DNA of 64,000 nt from an uncultured Candidatus Melainabacteria bacterium (GTDB lineage: Bacteria; Cyanobacteriota; Vampirovibrionia; Gastranaerophilales; Gastranaerophilaceae). The notes beneath the pieces are model-generated. The model worked only from the letters and a program-made list of their open reading frames with translations, did no database searches and was not told where the DNA came from. Shown one piece after another: positions 3,077 through 32,480 of the stretch. The DNA is taken from the NCBI GenBank assembly GCA_934692665.1, contig CAKUUG010000004.1, forward strand, positions 1,915-65,914, given 5' to 3'. The first letter of the stretch is position 1. Every line of letters begins with the position of its first letter. The position numbers were made by a program, and so were the translations under genes.

Positions 3077-3152
3077 GGACGATTAGCTCAGCCGGTAGAG
3101 TACTACATTGACATTGTAGGGGTCACGTGTTCGAGTCACGTATCGTCCACCA
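3077..3152 (+). tRNA. tRNA-Val (anticodon GAC), CCA encoded
   Basis: Hand-folded cloverleaf: acceptor GGACGAT/ATCGTCC, D arm GCTC-AGCCGGTA-GAGT, anticodon arm CTACA-TTGACAT-TGTAG, T arm ACGTG-TTCGAGT-CACGT, ACCA tail; 76 nt. Confidence 0.9.
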
Positions 3153-3153
3153 T

Positions 3154-3182
3154 AAAAGAGCCTTTTTAAAAAAGGCTCTTTT
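3154..3182 (+). terminator. rho-independent terminator after tRNA-Val
   Basis: AAAAGAGCC-loop-GGCTCTTTT hairpin with T tail. Confidence 0.7.
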
Positions 3183-3361
3183 AATATGCAAAACCATGAC
3201 TTAAAAAAGTCTGCATGTTACAGATTTTTTGAAAAAATGTCAATAATTTGGTAACAAAATTTTACAAACAAGTCTATACTTTTTACATTCACTATGTTAA
3301 AATATAAATAGCTCATCTACCATTCGAAAAGATATTAGTGTAGAAAGAGTGTCGAATCCGC

Positions 3362-3886
3362 CTATTTACGGGCGGTTTCTGCTTTTAGATATTTTTCGTA
3401 TGATTTTTGCAGTTGTCTTTTTTTGTGTTTGTATTTTACGGGGTAAGAAGTTATAAATACGTAATAATTAGGTGCTTCTCTAAGAATTATTACAAAATCT
3501 TTTTCTTCAAACCAAATAACCAGATTTTTTCTATTTTTTGAACGTTCTTCTCTAAAAATTTTTAATCCGACATATTGTGATTCAATGATTGCCCTATTCC
3601 AAGCGATTCTTTCACATCTATCTTTTGCAAAATCTCTAGAAGTATTGCCATTTTCGTCTTTTGTGTCTTCAGTTGTCATGTGGTGAAATGTTTGCGGTTT
3701 TCCATTTACCATCGGTTCTTTTTGCAATCCGATATGTTTGCCGTTGAAAATAGGTCTCGAATTTATAAAATCTTTTTTAAACATTTCAAAAACTTGTTCA
3801 TAATAATCTTCAAATGGGATATTTTCGTCGTGTTCAAACAACTTTGGCAACCAAGAAAAATTAAAATTCATTACATTCGTTTCCAT
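3362..3886 (-). CDS. hypothetical protein, downstream partner of the DUF3800 gene
   Basis: 174-aa ORF overlapping the upstream gene by 26 nt. No family recognised. Features: FHHMT, RCERIAWNRAIIE, and a strand-rich basic C-terminus (YYVFITSYPVKYKHKKRQ). The stop codon sits inside hairpin CCGCCCGTAAATAGGCGG. Confidence 0.7.
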   Translation of the reverse strand: METNVMNFNFSWLPKLFEHDENIPFEDYYEQVFEMFKKDFINSRPIFNGKHIGLQKEPMVNGKPQTFHHMTTEDTKDENGNTSRDFAKDRCERIAWNRAIIESQYVGLKIFREERSKNRKNLVIWFEEKDFVIILREAPNYYVFITSYPVKYKHKKRQLQKSYEKYLKAETARK

Positions 3887-5060: not shown

Positions 5061-5726
5061 ATGATTTTATTTATGAAAGTCAATTTTGTTAATGATAATT
5101 GTAACATTGTAAATGATGGCAAAACCAATATGAAGCTAGATCTTGAAATGCTTGATTTTGCAATCAAAAACAAGATTGATTATGCGATGGTAAGGTTTTA
5201 TCAATGGTATCCAAAGTGTATTAGTCTCGGAAAAAATCAAAAAAATGACATAAAAAACACTGATATCGATATCGTTACACGTCCGAGCGGCGGAAGAGCA
5301 TTGTTGCATGATAGAGAATTGACTTATTGTTTTGTTTCACCTGTTTTTAAAGACAGCATTATAGAAAGTTACAAAGACATCTCGAACGGATTGATTTTGG
5401 GGTTTAGGAAACTCGGGATAGAGCTTTCTTATGGTTCAAATGAAAAGAAGAATCTTGCTTACTGTATGAATATTTCAACAGGTGCAGATGTTTCATACAA
5501 AAACAAAAAATTCATAGGTTCTGCTCAATATAGAAGCAGAGGTTATCTTTTGCAGCATGGTTCTATCCCTTATGAATTGGATTTTGATTTGATAGATAAA
5601 ATTTTTAACCAAAAAACCTTAAAAGAAAATATTGTTACATTGAACGAAATAAATCCGAACCTTTCAACAAAACAAATAATAGAAGCATTAAAAGAAGGAT
5701 TTGTTGAATATTTTTCAGCTATTTAA
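5061..5726 (+). CDS. biotin/lipoate A/B protein ligase family protein (octanoyl/lipoyl transferase-like)
   Basis: RPSGGRALLHDRELTYCFV and KFIGSAQYRSRGYLLQHGSI are typical of the BPL_LplA_LipB catalytic domain. Confidence 0.75.
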   Translation: MILFMKVNFVNDNCNIVNDGKTNMKLDLEMLDFAIKNKIDYAMVRFYQWYPKCISLGKNQKNDIKNTDIDIVTRPSGGRALLHDRELTYCFVSPVFKDSIIESYKDISNGLILGFRKLGIELSYGSNEKKNLAYCMNISTGADVSYKNKKFIGSAQYRSRGYLLQHGSIPYELDFDLIDKIFNQKTLKENIVTLNEINPNLSTKQIIEALKEGFVEYFSAI

Positions 5727-7709
5727 AATTTCGTTAATTTTTGCTATTGTTTTTGGAAAATACCAAGCCAAATACTGCGAACGTGTATAAGAATCACTGC
5801 CTCTTTCTCCATAATCAGAAAGAAGAATATTTGTTTCTGCAACAAATTCTTTTAATGCCATAGAGTTTTCTTCTTCAATATCGTTTATGTCTTCTTCTTC
5901 ATCATACGAATCGAAATTTTCGTAATATTCGTCCATATAATTTTCGCTATCATTATTATCCAAATACATTCCAAGACTAGAAGGCAAGAAATAACCGATT
6001 ATTTCTTGGGATGCTGTTGGGTATTCTTTTAAAAATTCTTTTAATTCTCTGCTATAAATATCAATCAGTTCTTTATTTCCACTGATTTTGCCAAAGTCTT
6101 CATTATCATCATCATAATCCAGAGAATGCATTACTTCATGGTAGAAAGAAGCGGAATTTATGCCGATATTTAATTCACTGGGAGGAATAAAACAAGATTC
6201 TATATCATCAACAATGCATATTTCATCTATTGTTTTTGTCATCTCTAGGATTTTATCTAATGGCATAGATTTTAGCATTTCAAAAAATTCATCCGAAGAT
6301 TCTTCAAAATCAGAAATTTCTTCAGATTCTTCAGGCAACATATCCGAATTAGGTATTTCATCTGTTAATTCACACAACATGTCCGAAATAGGAATTTCTG
6401 TTATTTCGCCGTTTGGGTCTTTTATTTTGATTATTTTGTTTTCATCATCAAAATCGCCAAAATACTCTTTTGAATTTATGGTAGTTTTTGTTTTTGTATC
6501 CGAAATTTTTTCCCAAGTTCTGTTTATATCGAGCAAAGTTTCGCCATTGTCATCTTTGATTTTGTATTTGTATAATTTTGATATTGTTTTTCCGTTTTCG
6601 TCTGTTTTTTGGATATATTCTCTTTTTGTATTTGTGTCTTTGTAATTAAAATCTTCCGAAAATTTTGTAGAATTTCCGTCCTTTTCAACAGTTGCTATTT
6701 TCTTGCCTGAAATTTCTCCATTTTTTATCATTTTAATTACATCAAAATCTTCCGGATAATCATGCAAATCAAACTCTTCTATTTCATAAACCCCGCTTAA
6801 CAAATCTGATTTATGAGTGTAGATAATTTTTCTCGGCTCGTCTGTTGCTTTGTCTTTTATGACTTCTATCTGCTCTTCTACATTCGGATCATAAGCAAAA
6901 TCAAAAGTAGAAACGCCGCTCGTCTGCATTTGGACAGTTCTATTTGCATTATAATCCCAGCTGTGAACATTTCCATCGGGGTCTTTTTGTGTTGTTGTTT
7001 TTATTATGTCGCCTGTTGGCGGAAGTGTGATTGTTTTTAGTATTTTTGTGCCGTTTTTTAAATTTATGATTTTTGAAGCAACAAGAGAACTTTCTCCATT
7101 GTCTGCTCTTGTATATGCGATTCTATAACCTTTGCCTACTTCATCTAAAAAATTATTGACTCTTTTTTTATCCATATAACTGTCTACATAAGATATAACA
7201 GGATCTGTTGCACCTTTTTTGTACAATCTTGAAACATCATTGTCACGATTAAGCACTTCTTGAATACAATCACAAATACCATAAGACACGCAGAAGCTTG
7301 CTTGGTGCGGATTTACGTTTTGTTTCAATAGGTTTTTGTACTGTTGCATTTGGTCTTCATCAAAGTTGACCGTTTCTTCAACATCAGACAAAGAAAGCAA
7401 ACCCGAAGTCAAAAAATCAAATACTTCTTTATCTTTGATTTTTTTTGCAAATTCTTCCAACAATTCAGGTTTTAACCTAGAAACAGGCATCAAATCTTTT
7501 GTTGTTATTGATTGATTTTCGAGCAAAAGCTTCACTGTTTCATTATTTTTCAAAAAACCAAGATTCTTTTCGCATTCTTCTTCATATCCGGAAAAAGAAA
7601 TATTTTTTTGAAAAACATCATTAGCTATTGTTTGTTTTAGAGGTTTTTGTGCTATGTTTTTAGCAATTTTTGAATATTTTAACGTATTTGTGATGGCATT
7701 TATTTTCAT
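5715..7709 (-). CDS. large hypothetical protein with HExxH zincin motif, beta-hairpin repeats and an acidic tail
   Basis: 664 aa. HEVMH within SASFYHEVMHSLDYDDD. Repeated D-x-N/D-G hairpins (DPDGNVHSWDY, DENGKTISKLYKY, DDNGETLLDI, DPNGEITEI). Long D/E/Y-rich C-terminal stretches. Confidence 0.7.
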   Translation of the reverse strand: MKINAITNTLKYSKIAKNIAQKPLKQTIANDVFQKNISFSGYEEECEKNLGFLKNNETVKLLLENQSITTKDLMPVSRLKPELLEEFAKKIKDKEVFDFLTSGLLSLSDVEETVNFDEDQMQQYKNLLKQNVNPHQASFCVSYGICDCIQEVLNRDNDVSRLYKKGATDPVISYVDSYMDKKRVNNFLDEVGKGYRIAYTRADNGESSLVASKIINLKNGTKILKTITLPPTGDIIKTTTQKDPDGNVHSWDYNANRTVQMQTSGVSTFDFAYDPNVEEQIEVIKDKATDEPRKIIYTHKSDLLSGVYEIEEFDLHDYPEDFDVIKMIKNGEISGKKIATVEKDGNSTKFSEDFNYKDTNTKREYIQKTDENGKTISKLYKYKIKDDNGETLLDINRTWEKISDTKTKTTINSKEYFGDFDDENKIIKIKDPNGEITEIPISDMLCELTDEIPNSDMLPEESEEISDFEESSDEFFEMLKSMPLDKILEMTKTIDEICIVDDIESCFIPPSELNIGINSASFYHEVMHSLDYDDDNEDFGKISGNKELIDIYSRELKEFLKEYPTASQEIIGYFLPSSLGMYLDNNDSENYMDEYYENFDSYDEEEDINDIEEENSMALKEFVAETNILLSDYGERGSDSYTRSQYLAWYFPKTIAKINEILNS

Positions 7710-10054: not shown

Positions 10055-11482
<1,428 letters not shown>

Positions 11483-11563
11483 TTATAGTTATCTAGATTA
11501 TAACTTATTTGATTTTTTAGAAAGTAAAAAAATTTTTAATTTCATCCTTTTGGATGAGAATAA

Positions 11564-12433
11564 TTATTTAAAAATTTTTAATGAAAAATCACTTCCTTTT
11601 AAAATTATATATTCAAAAGTTTTTTCAATAACAGAATGATTTTTTAGATTTTTGCTTTTTTCATCTAATGGCAAAAATTCATAATTTTCCAATTTTATGT
11701 ATCTTCTGTTTATTTCAACATAAGGACTGGCCCACGGATAAAGTGCTCTCAAGTGCCTATCTACATCGGCTTTTGGCTGGTTGAGATTTATTATAACTTC
11801 TTTTGTTGTGATTTGGTGTTCGTATGTAGCGTATTTTTCGTCTTGTTTTATTGGTTGAAGCTGATTTTTGTCTGCCAATTCGAGCAAATCTTTTACCATT
11901 TCGACTGCGAGTTTGCAAGTTTTGTTTTTTAATGTTTTGCCATTTTCATTTTCTGAAATAGTAATTGCTTCTGACAATAAAATATCGCCTTTGTCGAATT
12001 TTTCATTCATAAAATGTACAGTGAGCCCTGTTACTTTTTGATTTAAATAAATTGTCCAAAAATAAGGATTTGCCCCTCGATTTTTAGGCAAAAGTGCCGG
12101 ATGAAAGTTTATACAAGGTACAGTGGACAATATTTCAGAGCCGAATTTTTCACCCCAAGAGCCGACTATTATCATATCGGGTTTAAGTTTTTTGATTGCA
12201 GAAAGAAATTTTTTGTCATTTACGCTTTTTGCTTTTATTTCTTTTAGTTTTTCAGATTTTATGATTGTAAAATCTTCTGAAGGATTAAAAATATCTTTAA
12301 AAAAAAGTTCAAAACCGCTATATCGTCTTCTATCAGAGCGAAAAACTGCCAAAATCTCGTGGTTTGAGGATTTTATTCCTTTAATCAGAGAAAAAAGCAT
12401 TTGACCATATCCGACTAAAACAATCTTTTTCAT
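11564..12433 (-). CDS. formyltransferase family protein (Fmt-like)
   Basis: INFHPALLPKNRGANPYFW matches the formyl_trans_N active-site region, and a C-terminal Fmt-like domain is present. Whether the substrate is tRNA or a sugar is not decidable. Confidence 0.7.
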   Translation of the reverse strand: MKKIVLVGYGQMLFSLIKGIKSSNHEILAVFRSDRRRYSGFELFFKDIFNPSEDFTIIKSEKLKEIKAKSVNDKKFLSAIKKLKPDMIIVGSWGEKFGSEILSTVPCINFHPALLPKNRGANPYFWTIYLNQKVTGLTVHFMNEKFDKGDILLSEAITISENENGKTLKNKTCKLAVEMVKDLLELADKNQLQPIKQDEKYATYEHQITTKEVIINLNQPKADVDRHLRALYPWASPYVEINRRYIKLENYEFLPLDEKSKNLKNHSVIEKTFEYIILKGSDFSLKIFK

Positions 12434-20999: not shown

Positions 21000-21659
21000 C
21001 TAAAAATTAACAAACATTTTCAGTTTTCCGTTGTCATTTCTGTAATTTAGCCAACCTGTTTTTTGGGAATTTCCAAAATCCAAAACTTTAGTGAGTACCC
21101 AGTTTCCTTGAAATAACCAAGGAGCAATATGGCGAGGCATATCAGCAACGCCAAGCGAATTTGTTTGTTTTACCGGTGCAGAATACATTGTTCTATCGGG
21201 CTTTTGTACGTCTTTAAAAAAATACATTCCGTATTTTTTTCCATAATAATCAAAAAATTCTCTTGTTGTGTAATATTTGTTTTTGCTCTCTTCTACCCAA
21301 CCGCAAACAGGGCTTTCTGCTTGATTGAAACAAACCAAAGACCATCCTTCTGTTTCATCTATTGTGGACAAAAACGCCAATTTTTTGTCTTCTTTATATA
21401 CAACAAAAATATCATCCAGATTGCATTTTTGTTTGTTAATCGAGCATTGGGGTTCACTTTTGAAATCAAAATTTAGAGTTTCCAGTATTTTTCCATCATT
21501 TTTTGCTTCTTGCCTCATAATTAAAGGAGAATGAACGAGCGTAAAACCTACTCCTGCTCTTTTTATTGAACTCGTATAATAAGGCATAACCTCGATTTGA
21601 GCAAAAACAGAAGTCATTACAGCACTAAACAAAAATAAAAATAGAACGATTTTTTTCAT
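21000..21659 (-). CDS. hypothetical secreted protein (219 aa)
   Basis: Signal peptide MKKIVLFLFLFSAVMTSVFA. GWVEE and GWLNY hint at SH3b-like modules (weak). Confidence 0.55.
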   Translation of the reverse strand: MKKIVLFLFLFSAVMTSVFAQIEVMPYYTSSIKRAGVGFTLVHSPLIMRQEAKNDGKILETLNFDFKSEPQCSINKQKCNLDDIFVVYKEDKKLAFLSTIDETEGWSLVCFNQAESPVCGWVEESKNKYYTTREFFDYYGKKYGMYFFKDVQKPDRTMYSAPVKQTNSLGVADMPRHIAPWLFQGNWVLTKVLDFGNSQKTGWLNYRNDNGKLKMFVNF

Positions 21660-23054: not shown

Positions 23055-24362
23055 ATGCCTGAAATCAGACTATGCCCTCTAGTAACACAACATTTTAAAT
23101 CGCAAACAAAACCAACCGAATCAAAACCAGAATACAATTCTTCAAACCAACCAAAATTCGACAAAAAGAAACTGGCTTTTTCTACAATGGCGGCGATTGG
23201 CGTTGTGGGGCTTGCTTTTGGTATTGTACATCACAAGAAGAACAATTTAGAACAAATCCAAGAACCGCTGCAGACATTTGCAGGTGATTTTGAAAAAGGT
23301 GTAAAAAAATTCTTTAATAATGGAAATTCTATCAATGGTGTAAAACTAAATAAAGGCAGAGCAATAAACGTTGATGGTAGCGGTTTTTCTGGCGTTATGA
23401 AAACAATGAACAACAAAAATGAAAAAATTACGCTGGAATATGTTGATGGCTATGTTAAAAAATCAACAAAAAATGAAAAATTATTCAAGACTTTTGACTA
23501 TTCTTCTTTGGCTAATGGACAAAAAACAGTCGTAATAGATACATTTGATGAAACAGGAAATTCAACAAACAAAATCCAACAAAAATTTTACGATAATGGC
23601 AAAATTGCAAAAACAATAAGACCAAGAGCTACATCAGGCGATATTAGAGAAAAAGGCAATATAATACTGGAATTTTCAAAAGACGGAAAAATGCTCTCTG
23701 ATATTGAAACCAGAGAATGTATGGGAATCGAAAAAGCTATATTTTATTCTAAAGATGGTAAAACAATAGAAAGAGAATTAAAAAGAAAAGTCTCTGACCT
23801 AAACAACTACAGCTTTTATGAAGAAACATTGTTTGCAGACGGTTCGCCTTTAAGACAAAAAACTTGTCGCTATAGTATTGATTTTGGGTTTGATGTTGAT
23901 ATAAATACAGATACTTTTAAACAAACAATGAATACGCCTGATATTATAAAGTTGTTCAAAAATGGAAAACCTGATAAAGGAATAATTGCAGGAAGAAAAG
24001 ACGGTGCAATATTTTTAAAAGATTTGTCAGATGAAAAATCTCTGGATGATTTTAGGATTTCAAAATACTACACAGAACCAAGTTTGACTTTGAGCCGATA
24101 TGATGCTAAAACAGATACTTTTAAAAAACTAACTTTAGAAAATAACGAATGGACAAATGGTGAAAGCGAAAAAAACATTTCTCCTTTTTCTAAAAAAGAA
24201 TTGCTTCAAAAAGCAGATGAATTGGATGAAGCAATGAGAATTTTGAAAGAAGACAATATAATAGTAAACCAAAGAGGAAAAGAAGAAGGCGACTTTGATT
24301 TGTATCCGGAAAAATTCACAGCTCATATTCAAAAAATAAGAAATTATGCAACAAGTTTATAG
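23055..24362 (+). CDS. membrane-anchored hypothetical protein with beta-hairpin (MORN-variant/YD-like) repeats
   Basis: N-terminus MPEIRL..., TM segment LAFSTMAAIGVVGLAFGIV, then repeats such as KFYDNGKIAKTI, EFSKDGKMLSDI and FYSKDGKTIERE. Confidence 0.65.
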   Translation: MPEIRLCPLVTQHFKSQTKPTESKPEYNSSNQPKFDKKKLAFSTMAAIGVVGLAFGIVHHKKNNLEQIQEPLQTFAGDFEKGVKKFFNNGNSINGVKLNKGRAINVDGSGFSGVMKTMNNKNEKITLEYVDGYVKKSTKNEKLFKTFDYSSLANGQKTVVIDTFDETGNSTNKIQQKFYDNGKIAKTIRPRATSGDIREKGNIILEFSKDGKMLSDIETRECMGIEKAIFYSKDGKTIERELKRKVSDLNNYSFYEETLFADGSPLRQKTCRYSIDFGFDVDINTDTFKQTMNTPDIIKLFKNGKPDKGIIAGRKDGAIFLKDLSDEKSLDDFRISKYYTEPSLTLSRYDAKTDTFKKLTLENNEWTNGESEKNISPFSKKELLQKADELDEAMRILKEDNIIVNQRGKEEGDFDLYPEKFTAHIQKIRNYATSL

Positions 24363-25069: not shown

Positions 25070-25140
25070 TTTCAGTCGTAACTGTGGTTTTCTAAGTTTT
25101 CGCTTTCAGTATCTTTCAACTTCGTATAGCTTTATGCTTG
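25070..25140 (-). repeat. degenerate inverted copy of the CGAAG repeat family
   Basis: The reverse complement reads CATAAAGCTATACGAAG...GAAAGCGAAAACTTAGAAAACCACAGTTACGACTGAAA. This parallels CATAAACTGTGCGAAG...GAAAGCGAAGACCTTAGATAG...CGTTACGACTGAAG at 2772-3000. Confidence 0.6.
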
Positions 25141-25166
25141 ACAGTAAAAAATTTTAGATTTATAGT
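25138..25166 (+). promoter_or_regulatory. sigma-70-type promoter of the Cys-rich/csoR-like operon
   Basis: TTGACA (25138-25143), 17-nt spacer, TATAGT (25161-25166). Confidence 0.65.
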
Positions 25167-25172
25167 GTGACT

Positions 25173-25189
25173 ATACCCTAGGGGGGTGT
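25173..25189 (+). promoter_or_regulatory. CsoR/RcnR-family operator-like pseudo-palindrome
   Basis: ATACCC-TA-GGGGGGTGT lies 6 nt downstream of the -10. It is a G/C tract flanked by AT-rich inverted arms, as known for CsoR/RcnR-type operators. Confidence 0.6.
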
Positions 25190-25250
25190 TAAAACCTTAA
25201 TTAATAATATATTAATTAGAAGCACAAATAGTAAAAAATAGGAGAAAAAA

Positions 25251-25613
25251 ATGAAAAAATTACTTTTAGGATTATTATTCATGGGGTTGATGGTATTCAC
25301 TGCAAATGCTGCATCTGCTTGTGATTGTGGTTGTCAAAAAGAAAACTGTAAATGTAACTGTCACAAAGAACAAGTAAAAGATTGTACTTGCGATTGTCAC
25401 AATGGAAAAGAATGTACAAAAGAAGACTGCAACTGCACTTGCCACAAAAAATGCAAAAGATTCTGCAAATGTGCTTGTCACAAAAAAGCAATAATCAAAT
25501 GCAATTGTGATAAAAAATGTGATTGCGATAAAAAATGCGATTGCCAAAATGGTGGAAAATGCGACGAAGACTGCAGCTGCCAAAAAGACAATTGCAAAAA
25601 TTGTAAAGAATAA
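25251..25613 (+). CDS. exported cysteine-rich (CxC) metallothionein-like protein
   Basis: AGGAG RBS and Sec signal MKKLLLGLLFMGLMVFTANA/AS. By my count the mature ~99 aa contains 28 Cys, almost all as CxC, four of them as CxCH. Internal CDKKCDC repeat. Confidence 0.75.
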   Translation: MKKLLLGLLFMGLMVFTANAASACDCGCQKENCKCNCHKEQVKDCTCDCHNGKECTKEDCNCTCHKKCKRFCKCACHKKAIIKCNCDKKCDCDKKCDCQNGGKCDEDCSCQKDNCKNCKE

Positions 25614-25656
25614 TAATTGGTGATAATATTTCTATATACTGTTAAAAAGGTAAAAT

Positions 25657-25929
25657 ATGCACTGTGACAAACAAAAGACTTTAAGATTATTAAAAACCAC
25701 AAAAGGTCAAATAGAAGGTTTGATTAAAATGGTAGAAGAAAATAGAGATTGTATCGAAATCAGCAATCAGATTCTGGCTGCAAGTTCTATCCTCAAAAAA
25801 ATAAACCTCGATATTCTAAAAGGACATTTTTCTCATTGCATAAAAGACTCTTTTAATTCAGGAAACGAACAAGAAATTGAAGAAAAATTTGAAGAAATAA
25901 ATTCAATTCTTGCTAAAATATTAAAGTAA
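25657..25929 (+). CDS. CsoR/RcnR (DUF156) family metal-sensing transcriptional repressor
   Basis: LLKTTKGQIEGLIKMVEENRDCIEISNQILA...LKGHFSHC aligns with the B. subtilis CsoR core. The Cys/His/Cys ligand positions are conserved, and His2-Cys3 sits at the N-terminus. Confidence 0.88.
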   Translation: MHCDKQKTLRLLKTTKGQIEGLIKMVEENRDCIEISNQILAASSILKKINLDILKGHFSHCIKDSFNSGNEQEIEEKFEEINSILAKILK

Positions 25930-25953
25930 AAGGTGCATTAATCTGCACCTTTT
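25928..25953. terminator. terminator hairpin after the csoR-like gene
   Basis: AAAAGGTGCA-TTAATC-TGCACCTTTT. Confidence 0.7.
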
Positions 25954-26078
25954 GGCTTTTCTACCCAAACATAAGTTGCTTCTTTTATTTCGTTTATTTT
26001 TTTGTAATAAAAAGGATTTTGGGCATTTTTATCGTATTTTTTCATTTTTCTATATAAAAAGTGGAAGTATTTTATCAT
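25938..26078 (-). CDS. possible small ORF (46 aa)
   Basis: Below the track size cut-off. GGAGGA lies 6 nt upstream of the ATG at 26078: MIKYFHFLYRKMKKYDKNAQNPFYYKKINEIKEATYVWVEKPKGAD. The stop lies in the terminator loop. Confidence 0.3.
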   Translation of the reverse strand: MIKYFHFLYRKMKKYDKNAQNPFYYKKINEIKEATYVWVEKPKGAD

Positions 26079-26294: not shown

Positions 26295-27449
26295 ATGAAA
26301 AAAACTCTAATTATAACTTCTATAATAATATTTGTGTGCGTTTTGACACGTTTTTCATTTACAAAATACAATGAAATCCAAAGAAATAAACAACTACAAG
26401 CTGCCTCGACTCCTGTTGTTGAACAAAATCAAGTAGAAGAAAAAGAAATATTCAAATCAATCGAAATCCCAGGTAGAGTACAATCAATGGACAAAGTTGA
26501 TTTGGTTGCCAGAATCGAAGGATACTTGCAAAAGAAACATTTTTCTGAAGGTGACTATGTAAAAAAAGGACAAGTTCTTTTTACAATAGAACAAACCCAA
26601 TATATAAATGCCCTAAACGATGCAAAAGCACAATTGCAAAATGCAAAAGCAACTCTATATAAAGCAACACGTGATTACGATAGAGGTGCAGAGTTGGTTA
26701 AAAAAGACTACATCTCAAAATCAACTTATGACGGATTATATGCGGACAAATTGGCTGCTCAAGCTTCTGTAAAATCAGCTTCTGCTGCTGTAGCGGAAGC
26801 CCAAAGAAGATTGGGTTATACAACAATAAAAGCTCCAACAGATGGCAGAATCGGTTCTCTTCAAATTCAAGAAGGAAATTATGTCACAATAACAAACGGT
26901 ACGATTGCAACAATCACAAAAACTAACCCAATTTATGTAAAATATTCTGTTGATTCAAAATTATTTAATGAAATAAGAGAACAAGATTTTATCCCAAAAA
27001 AAGGCAGCGAGCCGATAAAAGTGGAAGTTATTTTGCCTTCCGGACAAACTTATCCGATAAAAGGTGTCCAAGATTTTTGGGATAACCAAATTTCAAATAC
27101 AACAGGCACACTTGATTTTCGTGCAACATTTAAAAACGACGAAAACATCCTAATCCCCGGAGATTTTGTAAAAGTAAAAGTATATTCTAACCAAAAAAAC
27201 AATGTTTTGGTCGTTCCGATGGAATTTGCTCTACAAGATTCAACAGGCAGATATGTTTATGTTGTAGACAAAGACAACACCGTACAACAAAAATACTTTA
27301 AAGATAACGGACAATACGAAAAATACTGGATTATTGAAAGCGGATTAACAAAAGACGACAAATATATTTCGACCAATATAACAAAAATCATGCCAAAAAT
27401 GAAAGTAAAAACCGAAATAAAACAAAAAGAACAAAACCAAGAAAAGTAA
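26295..27449 (+). CDS. efflux RND transporter periplasmic adaptor (MFP/HlyD family)
   Basis: N-terminal TM, lipoyl/beta-barrel motifs (RVQSMDKVDLVARIEGYL, GYTTIKAPTDGRIG) and a coiled-coil hairpin. Confidence 0.9.
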   Translation: MKKTLIITSIIIFVCVLTRFSFTKYNEIQRNKQLQAASTPVVEQNQVEEKEIFKSIEIPGRVQSMDKVDLVARIEGYLQKKHFSEGDYVKKGQVLFTIEQTQYINALNDAKAQLQNAKATLYKATRDYDRGAELVKKDYISKSTYDGLYADKLAAQASVKSASAAVAEAQRRLGYTTIKAPTDGRIGSLQIQEGNYVTITNGTIATITKTNPIYVKYSVDSKLFNEIREQDFIPKKGSEPIKVEVILPSGQTYPIKGVQDFWDNQISNTTGTLDFRATFKNDENILIPGDFVKVKVYSNQKNNVLVVPMEFALQDSTGRYVYVVDKDNTVQQKYFKDNGQYEKYWIIESGLTKDDKYISTNITKIMPKMKVKTEIKQKEQNQEK

Positions 27450-27560
27450 ATTAAATTGACGAGATTTGATTTATAAAAGACTTTAAATAAGCGACGTTTC
27501 AAATCTTTGATTTGACAGGAGCGAATAAAATGTACGAAATAAAAGACTTCTGACCAACAA
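27446..27560 (+). repeat. single copy of the CGAAG repeat family between the MFP and RND genes
   Basis: GTAAATTAAATTGACGAGATTTGATTTA hairpin plus GCGACGTTTCAAATCTTTGATTTGACAGGAGC. The latter is identical over about 32 nt to 2845-2876. The copy ends with ATAAAATGTACGAAA, resembling the head motif. Confidence 0.8.
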
Positions 27561-27600
27561 GGCTTTTATGCAGTCCGTACCACAATTAAGAGGAAACAAT

Positions 27601-30600
27601 ATGCTAGATTCAAAATTTTTTATAGACCGTCCTAGATTTGCACTTGTTATATCAATTGTAATTATACTTGTTGGTGTAATAGCGATGACAAAACTTCCTC
27701 TCGAGCAGTATCCGAACGTTACTCCTCCACAAGTTAGGGTTAGTGCGACGTATATGGGTGCGAGTTCTGACGTTATTGAATCAACTGTTGCGGCTCCGAT
27801 TGAGTCTGCTGTAAACGGTGTTGAACACATGTTGTATATGACATCAGATTCAAAAGATGGCTCTTATTCGCTTAATATTTATTTTGAAGTAGGTTCTGAC
27901 CCTAATATGAACGTAGTAAACGTTCAAAACAAAGTTTCTTTAGTAACATCTCGTCTTCCGTCTGATGTATCTCGTTATGGTTTGACTGTAAAACAAAACA
28001 CAGGTGGCGGCGGTTTGTTGTATTATGGTATTTATTCGCCGGACAATTCTGTCGATTTGATTACTTTATCAAACTATGCTGCGATATATCTAAAAGATGA
28101 ACTATCACGTATTGATGGTGTTGCAGAAGTACAAGTTTTTGGTGGAAAAGACTATTCAATGAGAATTTGGCTGGACAGCCAAAAGCTTGCTGCATTGAAT
28201 GTTTCGCCATCAGAAGTATCAAATGCAATCAATGCCCAAAATGCCCAAGTTTCAGCCGGTGCTTTGGGTAATGAACCTATAATAGATAAAAAAGAAATGG
28301 CGATTACACTGAGAACTCCAGGACGTTTAAAAACTGTCGAAGAATTTGAAAATGTAATTGTTCGCTCTGGTGTAAACGGACAAGCAATAAAAGTAAAAGA
28401 TGTTGCTCGTGTTGAGCTTGCGGGTGAAAATTATGTAACAGAAGGAAAAGTTGACAATTCTGCAGTTGCTGTAATGTCTGTAACACAATTGTCATACGCA
28501 AATTCAATCGCAGTTGCTGATGCTTGTAACAAAAGAATGGAAAAACTTTCACAGAATTTTCCTGAAGGCATAGAATACAGCGTTTTCTACAATGCTACCG
28601 ATTCTGTAAAAGATTCATTGGAAGAAGTAGTAAAAGCGATTGTTCTTGCTGTATTTATCGTTGTTGCAACTGTATATTTATTCCTTGGCGATTGGAGAGC
28701 CAGTGTCATTCCGTTTGTTGCGATTCCTGTTTCTTTGATTGGTACATTTGCTGCTTTTGCTGCTTTTGGCTTTTCAATAAATACTTTGACTTTATTTGGA
28801 CTGGTGCTTGCGGTCGGTACGGTTGTTGACGATGCGATTGTTGTTGTTGAAAACGTACAAAGGCACATTGAATTGGGTCTAAAACCGAAAGAAGCAGCTA
28901 TTGTTTCTATGGAAGAAGTTTCGGGGGCTGTTGTTGCAACATCTCTTGTATTGATGGCGGTTTTTGTTCCTGTTGCGTTTATTCCAGGGATTACAGGAAA
29001 AATGTACCAACAATTCGCAATAACAATTGCGGTTTCAGTGGGTATTTCAACAGTAATGGCTTTGACATTGGCTCCTGCTTTGTGTGCAATTTTCTTGCGT
29101 TCTAAAGAAGATATGCCCCAAAGAAGTTTTTATGAAAAATATAGAGAACTTTATAATCACTACTGGGAAGATAAAAAAGAATTAAAAGGAATAGAATTAA
29201 TAAAAGCTTGGGGTGAATTTTTGGCTTATGGCTGGGATGTTTCTTTAAAGAAATTTGACAGATGGTTTGAAAGAACCAAAATGAGCTTTATTGATGGGGC
29301 AAAATATTTTATCGAAACACCAAAAAGAACCATCATAACTTATATTATTCTTGTTTTGATGTTGGTTGGAATATTCAAAATAATTCCTTCAGGATTTTTG
29401 CCGGAAGAAGATAACGGTTCTGTTTTCACTTCTGTATTGTTAAAAGATGGTACTTCACTTTCAAAAACAGGTGAATTAACTGAAGAATTGACTAATGAAT
29501 TTCTAAAAATTCCGGGAATAAAAAGTGTTCTTGCTTTGGGTGGTTTCAATGGTCAAAATAGTGCGATTTTGATTTCAAATCTTGATGAATGGAAAACAAG
29601 AGTTTCTGTTCCTTGGTATAAATATATCTTTTTATCAAAAGAAAAGAAACAAGCTTCTCACAAGAGTTTGCAAGATATTAAACAAAGTGCAAATCAATTG
29701 GCTGCAAATTATCCAAACGCCAGAATATACACATTCGTTCCTCCTGCAATCAGCGGTTTGTCTATGTTTGGCGGTTTTGAATACCAACTGTTAGACAAAG
29801 CTTCAAGAACTCCTGAAGAACTGTATTCTTTGGCTTCTACATTGATTAGAACAGCAAACCAAAATCCAAAATTGACAAGCGTTATGACACAATACAATCC
29901 GCAAACTCCACAATTAATGCTAAAAATTGACTATGCAAAAATTATGGCTTTAGGAATTAATGTGCAAGATGTTTATACTGCATTAGCTTCGCAATTCGGT
30001 ACATATTATGTAAACGACTTTAACTTGTACGGACGTGTATTCAGGGTTATGATGTCGGCTGATGAACAGTATCGTTCAGCAATCGATTCTATTGACAAAG
30101 TATATGTTAAAACAGGAGATGGAAAATCTGCTCCATTGTCGAGTTTGATTACAATAGAACCTACAACCGGTGCTTATGATATTACGAGATTTAATATGTA
30201 TCGTTCTATCCAAATCCAAGGTAACCCAGTAGCAGGTCAGTCTTCCGGTGATGCTTTGAAAACAATGGAAAAATTGTCTAAAGAAAACTTGCCAAAAGAT
30301 GCCGATTTTGCTTGGTCAGGAACATCTCTACAAGAAATTCAATCACAAGGACAAACAGGTATCGTTCTTGTTATGTCATTGGTGTTTGTTTATTTGTTTT
30401 TGGTTGCATTGTACGAATCTTGGATGTTGCCGGTTGGTGTAATGTTGATTGCACCTATTGCGATGTTGGGAGCGGTATTGTTCCAGTATGTCTTTGCAAT
30501 ATTTCCGCTATGGAGTCAGTTGTCACTTGATTTGTATGCCCAAATCGGTTTGATTATGTTGATTGGGTTAGCTGCAAAACAAGCAATTTTGATTGTTGAG

Positions 30601-30933
30601 TTTGCAAAAACAGAAAGAGAAAGCGGCTCCGGTATAATTGAAGCAGCAGAAAAAGCAATCACAATACGATTCAGAGCTGTAATGATGACAGTTTTGGCGT
30701 TTATATTTGGTATTCTTCCTTTGGTTGTCGCAGTAGGCCCAGGTTCTGAATCAAGAAAATCACTGGGCGTAACCGTGTTCGGCGGCATGACAGCAGCTGC
30801 AATTATTGGTACAATAATGGTGCCTGCTTTTTATGTGATTATTCAGAGTCTTAGAGAATCGACTTCTAAAAAATGGAACAAAAAAAATAGTCAGGCTATA
30901 ATAAAAGAAGATGGAGGAAACGATAAAAAGTGA
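27601..30933 (+). CDS. RND efflux permease (AcrB/HAE-1 type)
   Basis: [17 protein letters not shown]-terminus and TM4 motif [29 protein letters not shown] precedes ATG 27601; the track start at 27568 lies inside the repeat element. Confidence 0.93.
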
Positions 30934-32480
30934 ATAAAACAATAAAAACTTTATTTTTGTTATTATGCTTTTTGTCTTCTTTTAATGTTGTTTTTTCTCA
31001 AGAAGATTTGAGTAACGACACAGCTTCTCGCCAACAATTGGACAAAGGTTTGAAAATTTTCAAAAAAGACAAACCGAAAAGAACAAGAGTAAAAGCTGAA
31101 AAACCAAAAAAACAATACAAAATAACGAAAAAAGTTCAAGAAGAATATAAAATCCCGACAGATGTTTATATGCCTGTAGGTGAAAAATCAGATAAATTGA
31201 TAAAATTAGAAGGAAGTGTCGCAAAGTCTGTTGAACTAAACATGGCAGATTGTATAGAGTTGGCTTTGATTAACAATCCAAAAATCCGCTCTGCTTATGC
31301 CCAATCAGAACAAGCAAAATACCAAAAATTTGAAACTCTTGCAGGTTATACCCCTAGACTCGATTGGACAAGTTCAATGAACCATAGTATGCCTGATTTG
31401 AGTATGATTAAGAATATGAAAGGTGCAGCATATAACAAATACACCCTTGGGCAAATCGGCGTAAAACAACTTGTTTGGGATTTCGGTTATACTCAAAACA
31501 AATACACAATTAACAAAATTGACTATGAAAAATCAAAAACTCAAATAGATAAAACGGTAAACGAAGTTTTGTGTGCCGTAAAAGATGCATATTACAATCT
31601 TTTGTATGCTTTTGATAAAAGAAAAGTTGCAATGGATACGCTAAACCAATATGAACAAACATACAATCAAGCACTTGCTTTTTGGGAAGTAGGTACAAAA
31701 ACAAAAGTTGACGTATTGTTTGCACAAACAAATATGGAAGATGCCAGAAGCCAGTTGATTTCTGCAAATAATAATGTCGATATTGCATATTCTCAGCTTA
31801 ATAATGCAATAGGCTTGCCGTTTTCTGATCCTTATACAGTAGATACATCGCTGAAATATGAACCTGTTAAAATTTCAATGAAAGAAGCTGTAGAAATCGC
31901 AAACGAGTCCAGACCTGATTTAAAAAGTGCAATGCTCAATGTCGATGAAGCAAACCAAATGGTAAAATTGGCGTGGAAAACGTGGCTTCCGAGTTTGGAA
32001 TTTCAGGCTAGTTATGCTCGTGGCGGTGTAGATAGTTTTACTGCAAGAGAATGGTGGAGTTATGGCGGATATTTGACGTTTCCTACTGTAAATCCTGTCC
32101 AAACAGGCTTCCAAATCAAAGAAGCAAAAGCAGCCTACAAACAAATGCAGTATGATACAAAAGCCCAAATTAACGATATTTATTATGAAATTCAAACAGT
32201 CTATACCAGATTAAAAGATGCAAAAGCAAGAATTCCTGTAATGAAAGTTGCAATGGACAAAGCACAAGAAAACTATGACATTACATCAGGAAGATACAAA
32301 GTAGGTTATGGCGATGTAATCGAACTAAAAGATGCACAAGTTGCACTTGCTAATGCGAAATTGAACTATTTTCAAACAATATATGACTACAATTCAGCAA
32401 GAGCAAATTTAGAAAAAGCAATAGGACAAACTCTCAAACCTGAAACTTCAGAAGCTGTTGAAAATTTTCAAGAATTGTAA
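30930..32480 (+). CDS. TolC-family outer membrane efflux protein
   Basis: Signal peptide and duplicated OEP repeats ([32 protein letters not shown]). 4-nt overlap with the pump gene. Confidence 0.88.

Follow-up and report, generated by a model that had tools for sequence, protein, structure and literature searches.

A small cysteine-rich, putatively exported metallothionein-like protein encoded with a CsoR-family repressor in gut Melainabacteria

The window analysed here is a stretch of 64,000 nucleotides (32% G+C) from contig CAKUUG010000004.1 of an uncultured Candidatus Melainabacteria bacterium, and our subject is a two-gene operon on its forward strand, at 25138–25964. Sequence inspection revealed, in this order, a promoter, a predicted operator, a ribosome binding site (RBS), an open reading frame (ORF) for a cysteine-rich protein that we call the cargo, a gene for a repressor of the CsoR/RcnR family (csoR) and a terminator (Table 1). 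The promoter, described as near-consensus in a first-pass annotation made by a model from the sequence alone, matches 11 of the 12 consensus positions and is the top-scoring one in the region; TTGACA is found at the corresponding position in most related loci. The terminator listed by the same annotation is also present, with a hairpin of −16.4 kcal/mol (z = −4.7) followed by a T-run. The cargo and csoR ORFs are spaced by 43 nt, and csoR is co-transcribed with the cargo gene and is therefore autoregulated. An Rfam scan of the window identified three tRNAs only, with no match in the 61-nt leader of the operon.

Table 1 Features of the operon and of related loci (L and P numbers are our handles for related loci and proteins; positions without a handle are those of the window)
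Feature	Position	Strand	Description
Sigma-70-type promoter	25138..25166	+	−35 TTGACA 25138-25143, 17-nt spacer, −10 TATAGT 25161-25166
Predicted CsoR operator ATACCCTAGGGGGGTGT	25173..25189	+	Type-2 G-tract pseudo-palindrome, TAC-X9-GTG, 17 bp
RBS AGGAG	25240..25244	+	6 nt 5' of ATG; read from sequence
Cargo ORF	25251-25613	+	120 aa, 28 Cys
Sec-type signal peptide (predicted)	25251..25319	+	Residues 1-23: MKK, LLLGLLFMGLMVF, TANAASA; predicted cleavage ASA|C
Mature Cys-rich domain	25320..25613	+	97 aa + stop, 28 Cys (29%), metallothionein-like
18-bp tandem repeat	25497..25544	+	2.7 copies; encodes CDKKCDCDKKCDC, (CDKKCD)n stretch
csoR	25657..25929	+	90-aa CsoR/RcnR-family repressor; C32, H57, C61; co-transcribed with cargo
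Intrinsic terminator	25927..25964	+	11-pair hairpin 25927-25954, then T-rich tail
Tail F.FFKK..(I)KCNCE(E/K)	C-termini of P0003, P0006, P0007, P0009, P0016, P0019-P0021
csoR-less paralogues	L012 4001-4432; L013 4001-4507; P0025-P0030, P0037, P0043-P0047
Subgroup palindrome loci	L018 4640-4760; L019 260-380; L023 3890-4007; L024 1050-1172
RND efflux operon	26295-32480		Adaptor, 1121-aa permease, OEP; just downstream of the module

The predicted operator begins 6 nt after the −10 element, as first annotated, and covers the predicted transcription start. The general CsoR motif is TAC-X9-GTA between G-tracts, and the consensus in Streptomyces is ATATACCCCTNAGGGGTATAT (PMC3902906). The window site reads TAC-CCTAGGGGG-GTG, i.e. 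it has the X9 spacing with one right-arm mismatch to TAC-X9-GTA, and it matches the published CsoR type-2 motif and consensus near a promoter. Its core, TACCC-N(1-6)-GGGGT, occurs a single time in the window, against 0.04 occurrences expected. An element of the form ATACCC(C)-N2-4-GGGGGTGT lies 2–14 nt after the −10 in all ten independent loci in which a cargo gene is linked to csoR, and the operator was not found in the csoR-less loci L001, L012, L013, L014 and L016. This conservation across loci is the strongest computational evidence for a functional site.

The repressor has a significant match to PF02583 over residues 4–86 (E = 3.4e-22; 79.1 bits against a cut-off of 22.8), in agreement with the family first proposed. 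Its closest solved structures are the copper CsoRs of Geobacillus (4m1p), Streptomyces lividans (4adz) and Mycobacterium tuberculosis (2hh7), followed by InrS (5fmn), the persulfide-sensor-type structure 7mq1 and a Thermus CsoR. The Cys-His-Cys ligand positions noted earlier are indeed there: in the alignment, C32, H57 and C61 occupy the same columns as the Cu(I) ligands of the Geobacillus, Streptomyces and M. tuberculosis proteins, while the aligned persulfide sensor 7mq1 has an Asn in place of the ligand His. We compared the window protein with 51 close homologues of 51–94% identity (n = 52). Cys32 is present in 52/52, and His57 and Cys61 in 50/52 each, the other two being missed by the motif pattern, which does not imply loss of the ligands. 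The first-pass annotation had also pointed to an extra His2-Cys3 at the N-terminus; both residues are present in the window protein, and a His at position 2 or 3 is common in the clade (31/52), but Cys3 is rare (3/52) and is not a clade feature. DNA is contacted by an RLXR motif on helix alpha-1, common in CsoRs, and by a conserved Gln on helix alpha-2 (PMC3902906); the latter is conserved here (Q38). The top NCBIfam match of the repressor is RicR, far under the cut-off (56.8 against 175 bits).

A repetitive ORF such as that of the cargo might be a spurious low-complexity frame beside a csoR that alone is real. Repeats of this kind do open several frames, e.g. an antisense 102-aa ORF at 25275–25583, and at one related locus (L025) the source gene caller picked the wrong frame for the cargo. 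However, comparison with L008, a 98%-identical copy in a Melainabacteria metagenome-assembled genome (MAG), showed 23 synonymous and 4 non-synonymous differences in the + frame (pN/pS 0.03). Four other close family pairs gave pN/pS of 0.06–0.15, and a Cys is never substituted in any of the five pairs. The RBS, promoter and signal peptide are conserved as well, and about 60 homologues keep the Cys in register while the residues between them vary. An identical protein is encoded on nine metagenomic contigs, a Hadza gut assembly included, always in the same context. The first-pass annotation had reasoned that an ORF not conserved next to csoR homologues would probably be spurious; the pair is kept in the ten independent loci. 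The pN/pS values and the homologues refute the spurious-frame explanation, whose probability we put close to nil, and the cysteine-rich ORF is a real gene under strong purifying selection. In L025 the true ORF (3093–3485, start at 3093) encodes 130 aa with 32 Cys, and the annotated frame (3139–3450) a Cys-free product. Protein databases probably cover low-complexity genes of this kind poorly, and the family is probably larger than counted here.

The cargo starts with the n/h/c layout of a Sec signal, as had been claimed. Inspection of the three regions identified a 13-residue hydrophobic core and Ala at −3 and −1, with no twin-arginine motif in the leader. All full-length relatives that were read keep this tripartite layout: position −3 is V, A, I, S, T or G, and position −1 is A. 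The signal peptides of these relatives are 22–23 residues long and carry a bulky residue at −2 (mostly F, L, M or Y). The cleavage site originally suggested, ANA|AS, has to be moved: the homologues place the cut after A23, leaving a mature part of 97 aa rather than about 99. Taken together, the leaders point to a Sec-exported protein. AASA|C fits the permissive PROSITE-style lipobox rule, yet −3 is Ala and not Leu, Val or Ile; lipidation of the window protein at this site is possible. For the family, the sequences favour processing by signal peptidase I over lipoprotein processing, because members without a Cys at +1 exist (L011, L027, L028 and P0001; the member survey counts four csoR-linked members and P0001).

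The mature domain includes 22 Lys and Arg, 17 Asp and Glu, 4 His and no Met, and its hydrophobic and aromatic residues number four in all, one Phe among them. The 28 Cys counted earlier, and their predominance in CxC, were confirmed: 14 overlapping CxC motifs take in 23 of them. The four CxCH motifs that had been listed (CNCH, CDCH, CTCH and CACH) are present in the window protein but are not conserved in the family. The CDKKCDC internal repeat, likewise noted before, corresponds to the stretch CDKKCDCDKKCDC encoded by the 18-bp tandem repeat, a sign that the metal-ligand module has recently expanded. An AlphaFold2 model built on a 52-sequence alignment had a pLDDT of 58.7 and a pTM of 0.26; only the signal helix is confident, and the mature part shows nothing beyond 4-residue helical turns of low confidence. 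The missing predicted fold is compatible with metal-templated folding and is not evidence for it. The features by which metallothioneins are operationally recognised (small size, richness in Cys as CxC/CxxC, few aromatic or hydrophobic residues) were found in the cargo and likewise in 14 relatives.

In order to define the family, databases were searched at several depths. Scanned exhaustively with HMMER, 1.84 billion cluster representatives gave 19 matches, and a profile search among 5.8 billion proteins gave 52. A single-sequence search of the 5.8 billion proteins returned one relative and not the query itself; absence in this word-indexed search is unreliable for the low-complexity window protein, which was not returned though it lies on nine contigs. 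A cluster look-up by exact sequence likewise listed this protein as absent from the collection. The genome-collection scan identified two uncultured Candidatus Melainabacteria bacterium MAGs, one of them with a protein 98% identical to that of the window. The window protein has no Pfam or NCBIfam match at E ≤ 1 and no PDB sequence match at E ≤ 10, the profile search included. The 52 relatives have no Pfam, NCBIfam or PDB match and no name in any source; the best signal among them is a sub-threshold Metallothio_5 match (E = 0.009) in one member only. Literature searches on periplasmic, exported or signal-peptide metallothioneins and on Melainabacteria copper systems found nothing equivalent, in line with the earlier statement that no equivalent had been described. 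A tblastn search against plasmid and phage collections gave no match and so no evidence of a location on mobile elements. By these sequence comparisons the cargo belongs to a new, small, unnamed family of predicted exported, metallothionein-like proteins under putative CsoR control.

Members of this family are 72–220 aa long and differ by gain or loss of CxCxC-type units. Most full-length members have an N-terminal CDCGCQ, repeats of the type KDCDCGC(H/Q)KGEKC.C recur, and many end in a basic-hydrophobic tail that may be a sorting or anchoring signal. In the window protein the corresponding motif, IIKCNCDK (residues 81–88, window 25491–25514), is internal and is followed by a repeat-derived extension. 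Mature domains across the family measure some 50 to 200 residues, with 20–29% Cys, very few hydrophobic residues and almost no Met (a single Met in one member). His varies from 0 to 8 and is thus not a family ligand; of the ten cargo proteins linked to csoR, four are without it. Five of these ten have an odd number of Cys, and complete disulfide pairing is therefore no family requirement.

The link between cargo and repressor was examined from both sides, and ten independent csoR-linked loci were found (window/L008, L010/L017, L009, L011, L015, L025, L026, L027, L028 and L031). The search based on the cargo revealed csoR directly downstream in the first five, of which L015 is cut by the contig end. 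For the search based on the repressor, five csoR homologues of 61–65% identity were sampled blindly, picked only for long contigs. All five adjoin an upstream Cys-rich ORF with a signal peptide and an operator, the ORFs (L025, L026, L027, L028, L031) encoding 91–220 aa with 21–42 Cys. The next-nearest CsoRs, of 58% (Anaerovorax odorimutans) and 56% identity, adjoin genes for HMA-domain P-type ATPases, and the operators at these two loci read ACACCCC-N3-GGGGG. As judged from these neighbourhoods, the repressor clade is dedicated to Cys-rich cargo and stands nearest, among canonical CsoRs, to regulators of the copA type, for which reason Cu(I) is preferred over Ni or Co as the putative signal.

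At L009 only, a gene for a FieF/MntE-like cation diffusion facilitator (CDF; 10837–11724) lies 34 nt past csoR, which hints at a divalent-metal link or at a mere composite metal island. Taxonomic labels were available for three loci only, and that of L009 is doubtful: its contig (CAZNEN010000015.1) is labelled as a Muribaculaceae MAG, but the cargo, csoR clade, operator and AT-rich promoter look like those of Melainabacteria. The label could reflect a binning error or horizontal transfer.

Some family members are encoded apart from csoR. The csoR-less, operator-less paralogues end either in an acidic C-terminal tail rich in Thr/Glu/Gln or in a conserved 'KKGCPL..II.E', and at L013 a Cation_efflux gene lies about 2 kb from the paralogue on the opposite strand. 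A further csoR-less subgroup (L018, L019, L023 and L024; 149–151 aa, 37 Cys) bears a different palindrome, TACCCCAC(A/T)GGTA, i.e. TAC-X7-GTA, with GTC as the right arm in L018. This palindrome directly follows the −10, where the csoR-linked loci carry their operator. No csoR was found in the 1.2–3.5 kb downstream that the contigs of these four loci cover, and the subgroup may be controlled in trans by a CsoR-like repressor encoded elsewhere.

Hairpins between the cargo stop and the csoR start were observed in three related loci (L010 10385–10475, L009 10433–10534 and L011 4283–4364), with energies of −20 to −23 kcal/mol (z −3.5 to −5.8) and, in L010, a U-run directly 3' of the hairpin. No comparable hairpin was found in the window at 25611–25660 (−1.9 kcal/mol). 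Such intergenic hairpins could be partial terminators that set a high ratio of cargo to repressor.

From the architecture, the purifying selection, the family of the repressor, the conserved ligands and operator and the repeated linkage of cargo to csoR, we read the operon, with moderate confidence, as an autoregulated two-gene metal-stress module in which CsoR switches an exported, copper-sequestering Cys-rich protein. Cu(I) is the likeliest signal, because the Cys-His-Cys ligands are kept and the next-closest CsoRs are ATPase-linked and have a similar operator. The first-pass annotation had proposed a derepressible periplasmic or extracellular sponge for soft metals (Cu(I), possibly Ni or Cd) under a sensor of the CsoR/InrS type; the analysis supports this reading, with the InrS/Ni option less likely than Cu(I). 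The window encodes an MlaD-family protein and a resistance-nodulation-division (RND) pump with a TolC-like outer-membrane factor (OEP), which implies a diderm cell with a periplasm, and the destination of the cargo is probably the periplasm rather than the cell surface or the exterior.

In the proposed mechanism, a CsoR tetramer would sit on the G-tract operator over the transcription start and block both genes as long as the inducing metal is lacking. A rise in cytoplasmic Cu(I) would fill the Cys32-His57-Cys61 site, take CsoR off the DNA and allow the operon to be transcribed. The cargo precursor would be made unfolded and metal-free, exported by Sec and cut by signal peptidase I after Ala23, releasing into the periplasm a product of 97 residues, 29% Cys and rich in Lys, with no hydrophobic core. 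Metal-thiolate clusters would then form on its CxC/CxCxC motifs, in some members with the help of His, and in the reducing periplasm of an anaerobe copper and possibly other thiophilic metals would be trapped before they enter the cytoplasm. Once cytoplasmic Cu(I) drops, CsoR would rebind, and the operon-encoded csoR would reset the switch.

Several observations weigh against this reading. Exported Cys are usually oxidised to disulfides, and the characterised periplasmic Cu(I) binders CusF, PcoE and SilE use Met and His and not Cys, unlike the window protein with its complete lack of Met. The residues at the RLXR position of the repressor read LLKT, with R10 one position earlier and K13 and K16 near. 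Neither copA nor copZ was found within the 64-kb window, nor was a second operator, so that the rest of a copper regulon is unseen. Finally, the CDF gene of L009 and the His2/3 of 31 of the 52 repressors are reminiscent of Ni/Co/Zn-sensing relatives. These last two features would suit the same module acting on a divalent thiophilic metal (Zn, Cd, Ni or Co), with the cargo as a Zn/Cd-type thiolate sponge: the CDF is an exporter of FieF/MntE-like type, His2/3 gives an H-C-H-C pattern like that of the nickel sensor InrS, itself among the solved relatives, and CxCH motifs, with their His, are frequent in roughly half the cargo proteins. Yet the CDF linkage is limited to one locus, His2 is absent at csoR-linked loci such as L009, L027 and L031, and four of the ten csoR-linked cargo proteins have no His at all. 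Since the top solved matches are copper CsoRs and the canonical relatives closest to the clade control genes for HMA P-type ATPases via a similar operator, we consider a divalent metal unlikely.

A slightly smaller chance is given to a cargo that does not bind metal and for which the copper or stress response is incidental, namely a component of the envelope or surface cross-linked by disulfides, as with the small Cys-rich outer-membrane protein of chlamydiae, or else a cationic peptide rich in Cys with an antimicrobial or adhesive role. The cargo is exported by prediction and very rich in Cys and Lys, the shared tail F.FFKK..KCNCE could anchor or sort it, and several paralogues are without csoR or operator, for which paralogues such a role is possible. 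The tight, repeated linkage to a metal-sensor repressor at ten loci argues otherwise, as do the odd Cys counts in half of the members, the CxC spacing typical of metal-thiolate clusters and the lack of both a predicted fold and a hydrophobic core; an anaerobic host, as we take this lineage strictly to be, would also disfavour oxidative cross-linking. Least probable of these alternatives, and in our opinion quite improbable, is a module that answers reactive sulfur species or electrophiles (cf. CstR and FrmR), with the cargo as a sacrificial thiol or persulfide sink in the sulfide-rich gut. The CsoR/RcnR family does include non-metal sensors, and the repressor has a weak NCBIfam similarity to FrmR. 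However, the clade keeps the ligand His that is replaced by Asn in the persulfide-sensor structure 7mq1, both its operator and its nearest relatives are of the copA-regulator kind, and Pro2, which we take to be the hallmark of FrmR, is absent from the window repressor.

The favoured reading, a CsoR-switched exported copper sequestrant, has partial counterparts among known systems. The nearest in logic is RicR-MymT of M. tuberculosis, where a Cu-responsive repressor of the CsoR family controls a small Cys-rich Cu protein. RicR is a CsoR paralogue that controls the Cu-metallothionein MymT (PMC4801387), a 4.9-kDa cytosolic protein that binds up to six Cu(I) (PMC7558416). In comparison with MymT, the window protein is exported (by prediction), twice as long and equipped with 28 Cys, and its gene and that of its repressor form one operon. 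MymT itself is not known to carry a signal peptide or to share a transcript with RicR. Pfam profile searches detected no sequence relation of the window protein to any known metallothionein. The CsoR-CopZA and CsoR-CopA operons of Bacillus, Streptomyces, Geobacillus and Anaerovorax share with our locus the repressor family, the C-H-C ligands and a type-2 G-tract operator past the −10. They differ from it in their cargo, a P-type ATPase or chaperone instead of an exported Cys-rich protein, and the RLXR of the window repressor is not in register.

Other Cys-based stores are comparable to the cargo in part. Csp1 of methanotrophs is an exported store of many Cu(I) on Cys thiolates (PMC7558416) and resembles the window protein as a Cys-based metal protein sent out of the cytoplasm. 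However, Csp1 is exported by Tat, already folded as a four-helix bundle, whereas the window protein has a Sec-type leader and no predicted mature helices; it is not homologous to Csp1, as no Pfam match, no twin-arginine motif and no four-helix bundle in the AlphaFold2 model were found. SmtA/BmtA and PmtA are likewise small Cys-rich bacterial metal-binding proteins, without sequence similarity to the window protein; they are cytosolic, with about 9–10 Cys and a zinc-finger-like fold, and we know of no signal peptide in SmtA/BmtA. SmtA comes from the cyanobacterium Synechococcus (PMC7558416), which belongs to the phylum-level neighbourhood of Melainabacteria, and PmtA was detected on the cell surface, yet SignalP finds no signal peptide in it (PMC11237414).

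PcoE/SilE, CusF and SmbP share with the cargo the concept of an inducible, exported, multi-site periplasmic buffer for soft metals; the window protein differs from them in relying on Cys. These buffers use Met/His ligands, and their regulators are two-component systems and not CsoR. Fungal and animal Cu(I) metallothioneins (the Neurospora Cu-metallothionein, beta-domains) are, like the cargo, dominated by CxC, with about 30% Cys and no aromatic core, and carry a 'DCGC..G..C.C'-type motif. They are eukaryotic and cytosolic, and no homology to the window family is detectable.

Precedent thus exists for CsoR-metallothionein logic (RicR-MymT) and for an exported Cys-based Cu(I) store (Csp1), and the module is not a categorically new mechanism: it is a CsoR-controlled copper response with a new exported metallothionein-like cargo family. 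That the cargo is the first natural Sec-exported metallothionein, of a family restricted to gut Melainabacteria and without homology to any described one, which occupies the place next to csoR that a copper ATPase gene has in the nearest relatives sampled, we regard as a tentative proposal with slightly less than an even chance of being correct. If true, cytoplasmic copper would be answered by a high-capacity thiolate buffer outside the cytoplasm, beyond pumping alone, a strategy workable only in a permanently reducing, anaerobic periplasm, and the chemical question would arise of how thiolate clusters stay reduced there. Bacterial copper defence comprises efflux pumps, chaperones, oxidases, Met/His periplasmic buffers and few cytosolic Cys stores; a secreted, CsoR-dedicated protein with 29% Cys would be an addition to these tools. 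The cargo of the sensor would also have been swapped from a pump to a sponge among closely related repressors (56–65% identity). To our knowledge Melainabacteria are uncultured gut bacteria of which almost nothing has been studied experimentally, and a testable function would be useful for them. As a compact, exportable and repeat-expandable module for putative metal binding, the cargo could be of practical use in metal capture and biosensing, and the 17-bp operator and the 90-aa repressor form a minimal inducible switch.

The RND efflux operon that lies just downstream of the module was considered as a part of the regulon and rejected: it is of the HAE1 multidrug type and not CusA/CzcA, lacks the operator and has a promoter-like site of its own, TTGACA-18-TACAAT at 26343–26372, inside the 5' end of the listed adaptor ORF. 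Three further ORFs of the window are without a Pfam match (23055–24362, 435 aa; 5715–7709, 664 aa; 21000–21659, 219 aa), the 435-aa ORF having no NCBIfam match either. On other contigs, the 435-aa ORF and the 219-aa ORF are conserved with the same surroundings.

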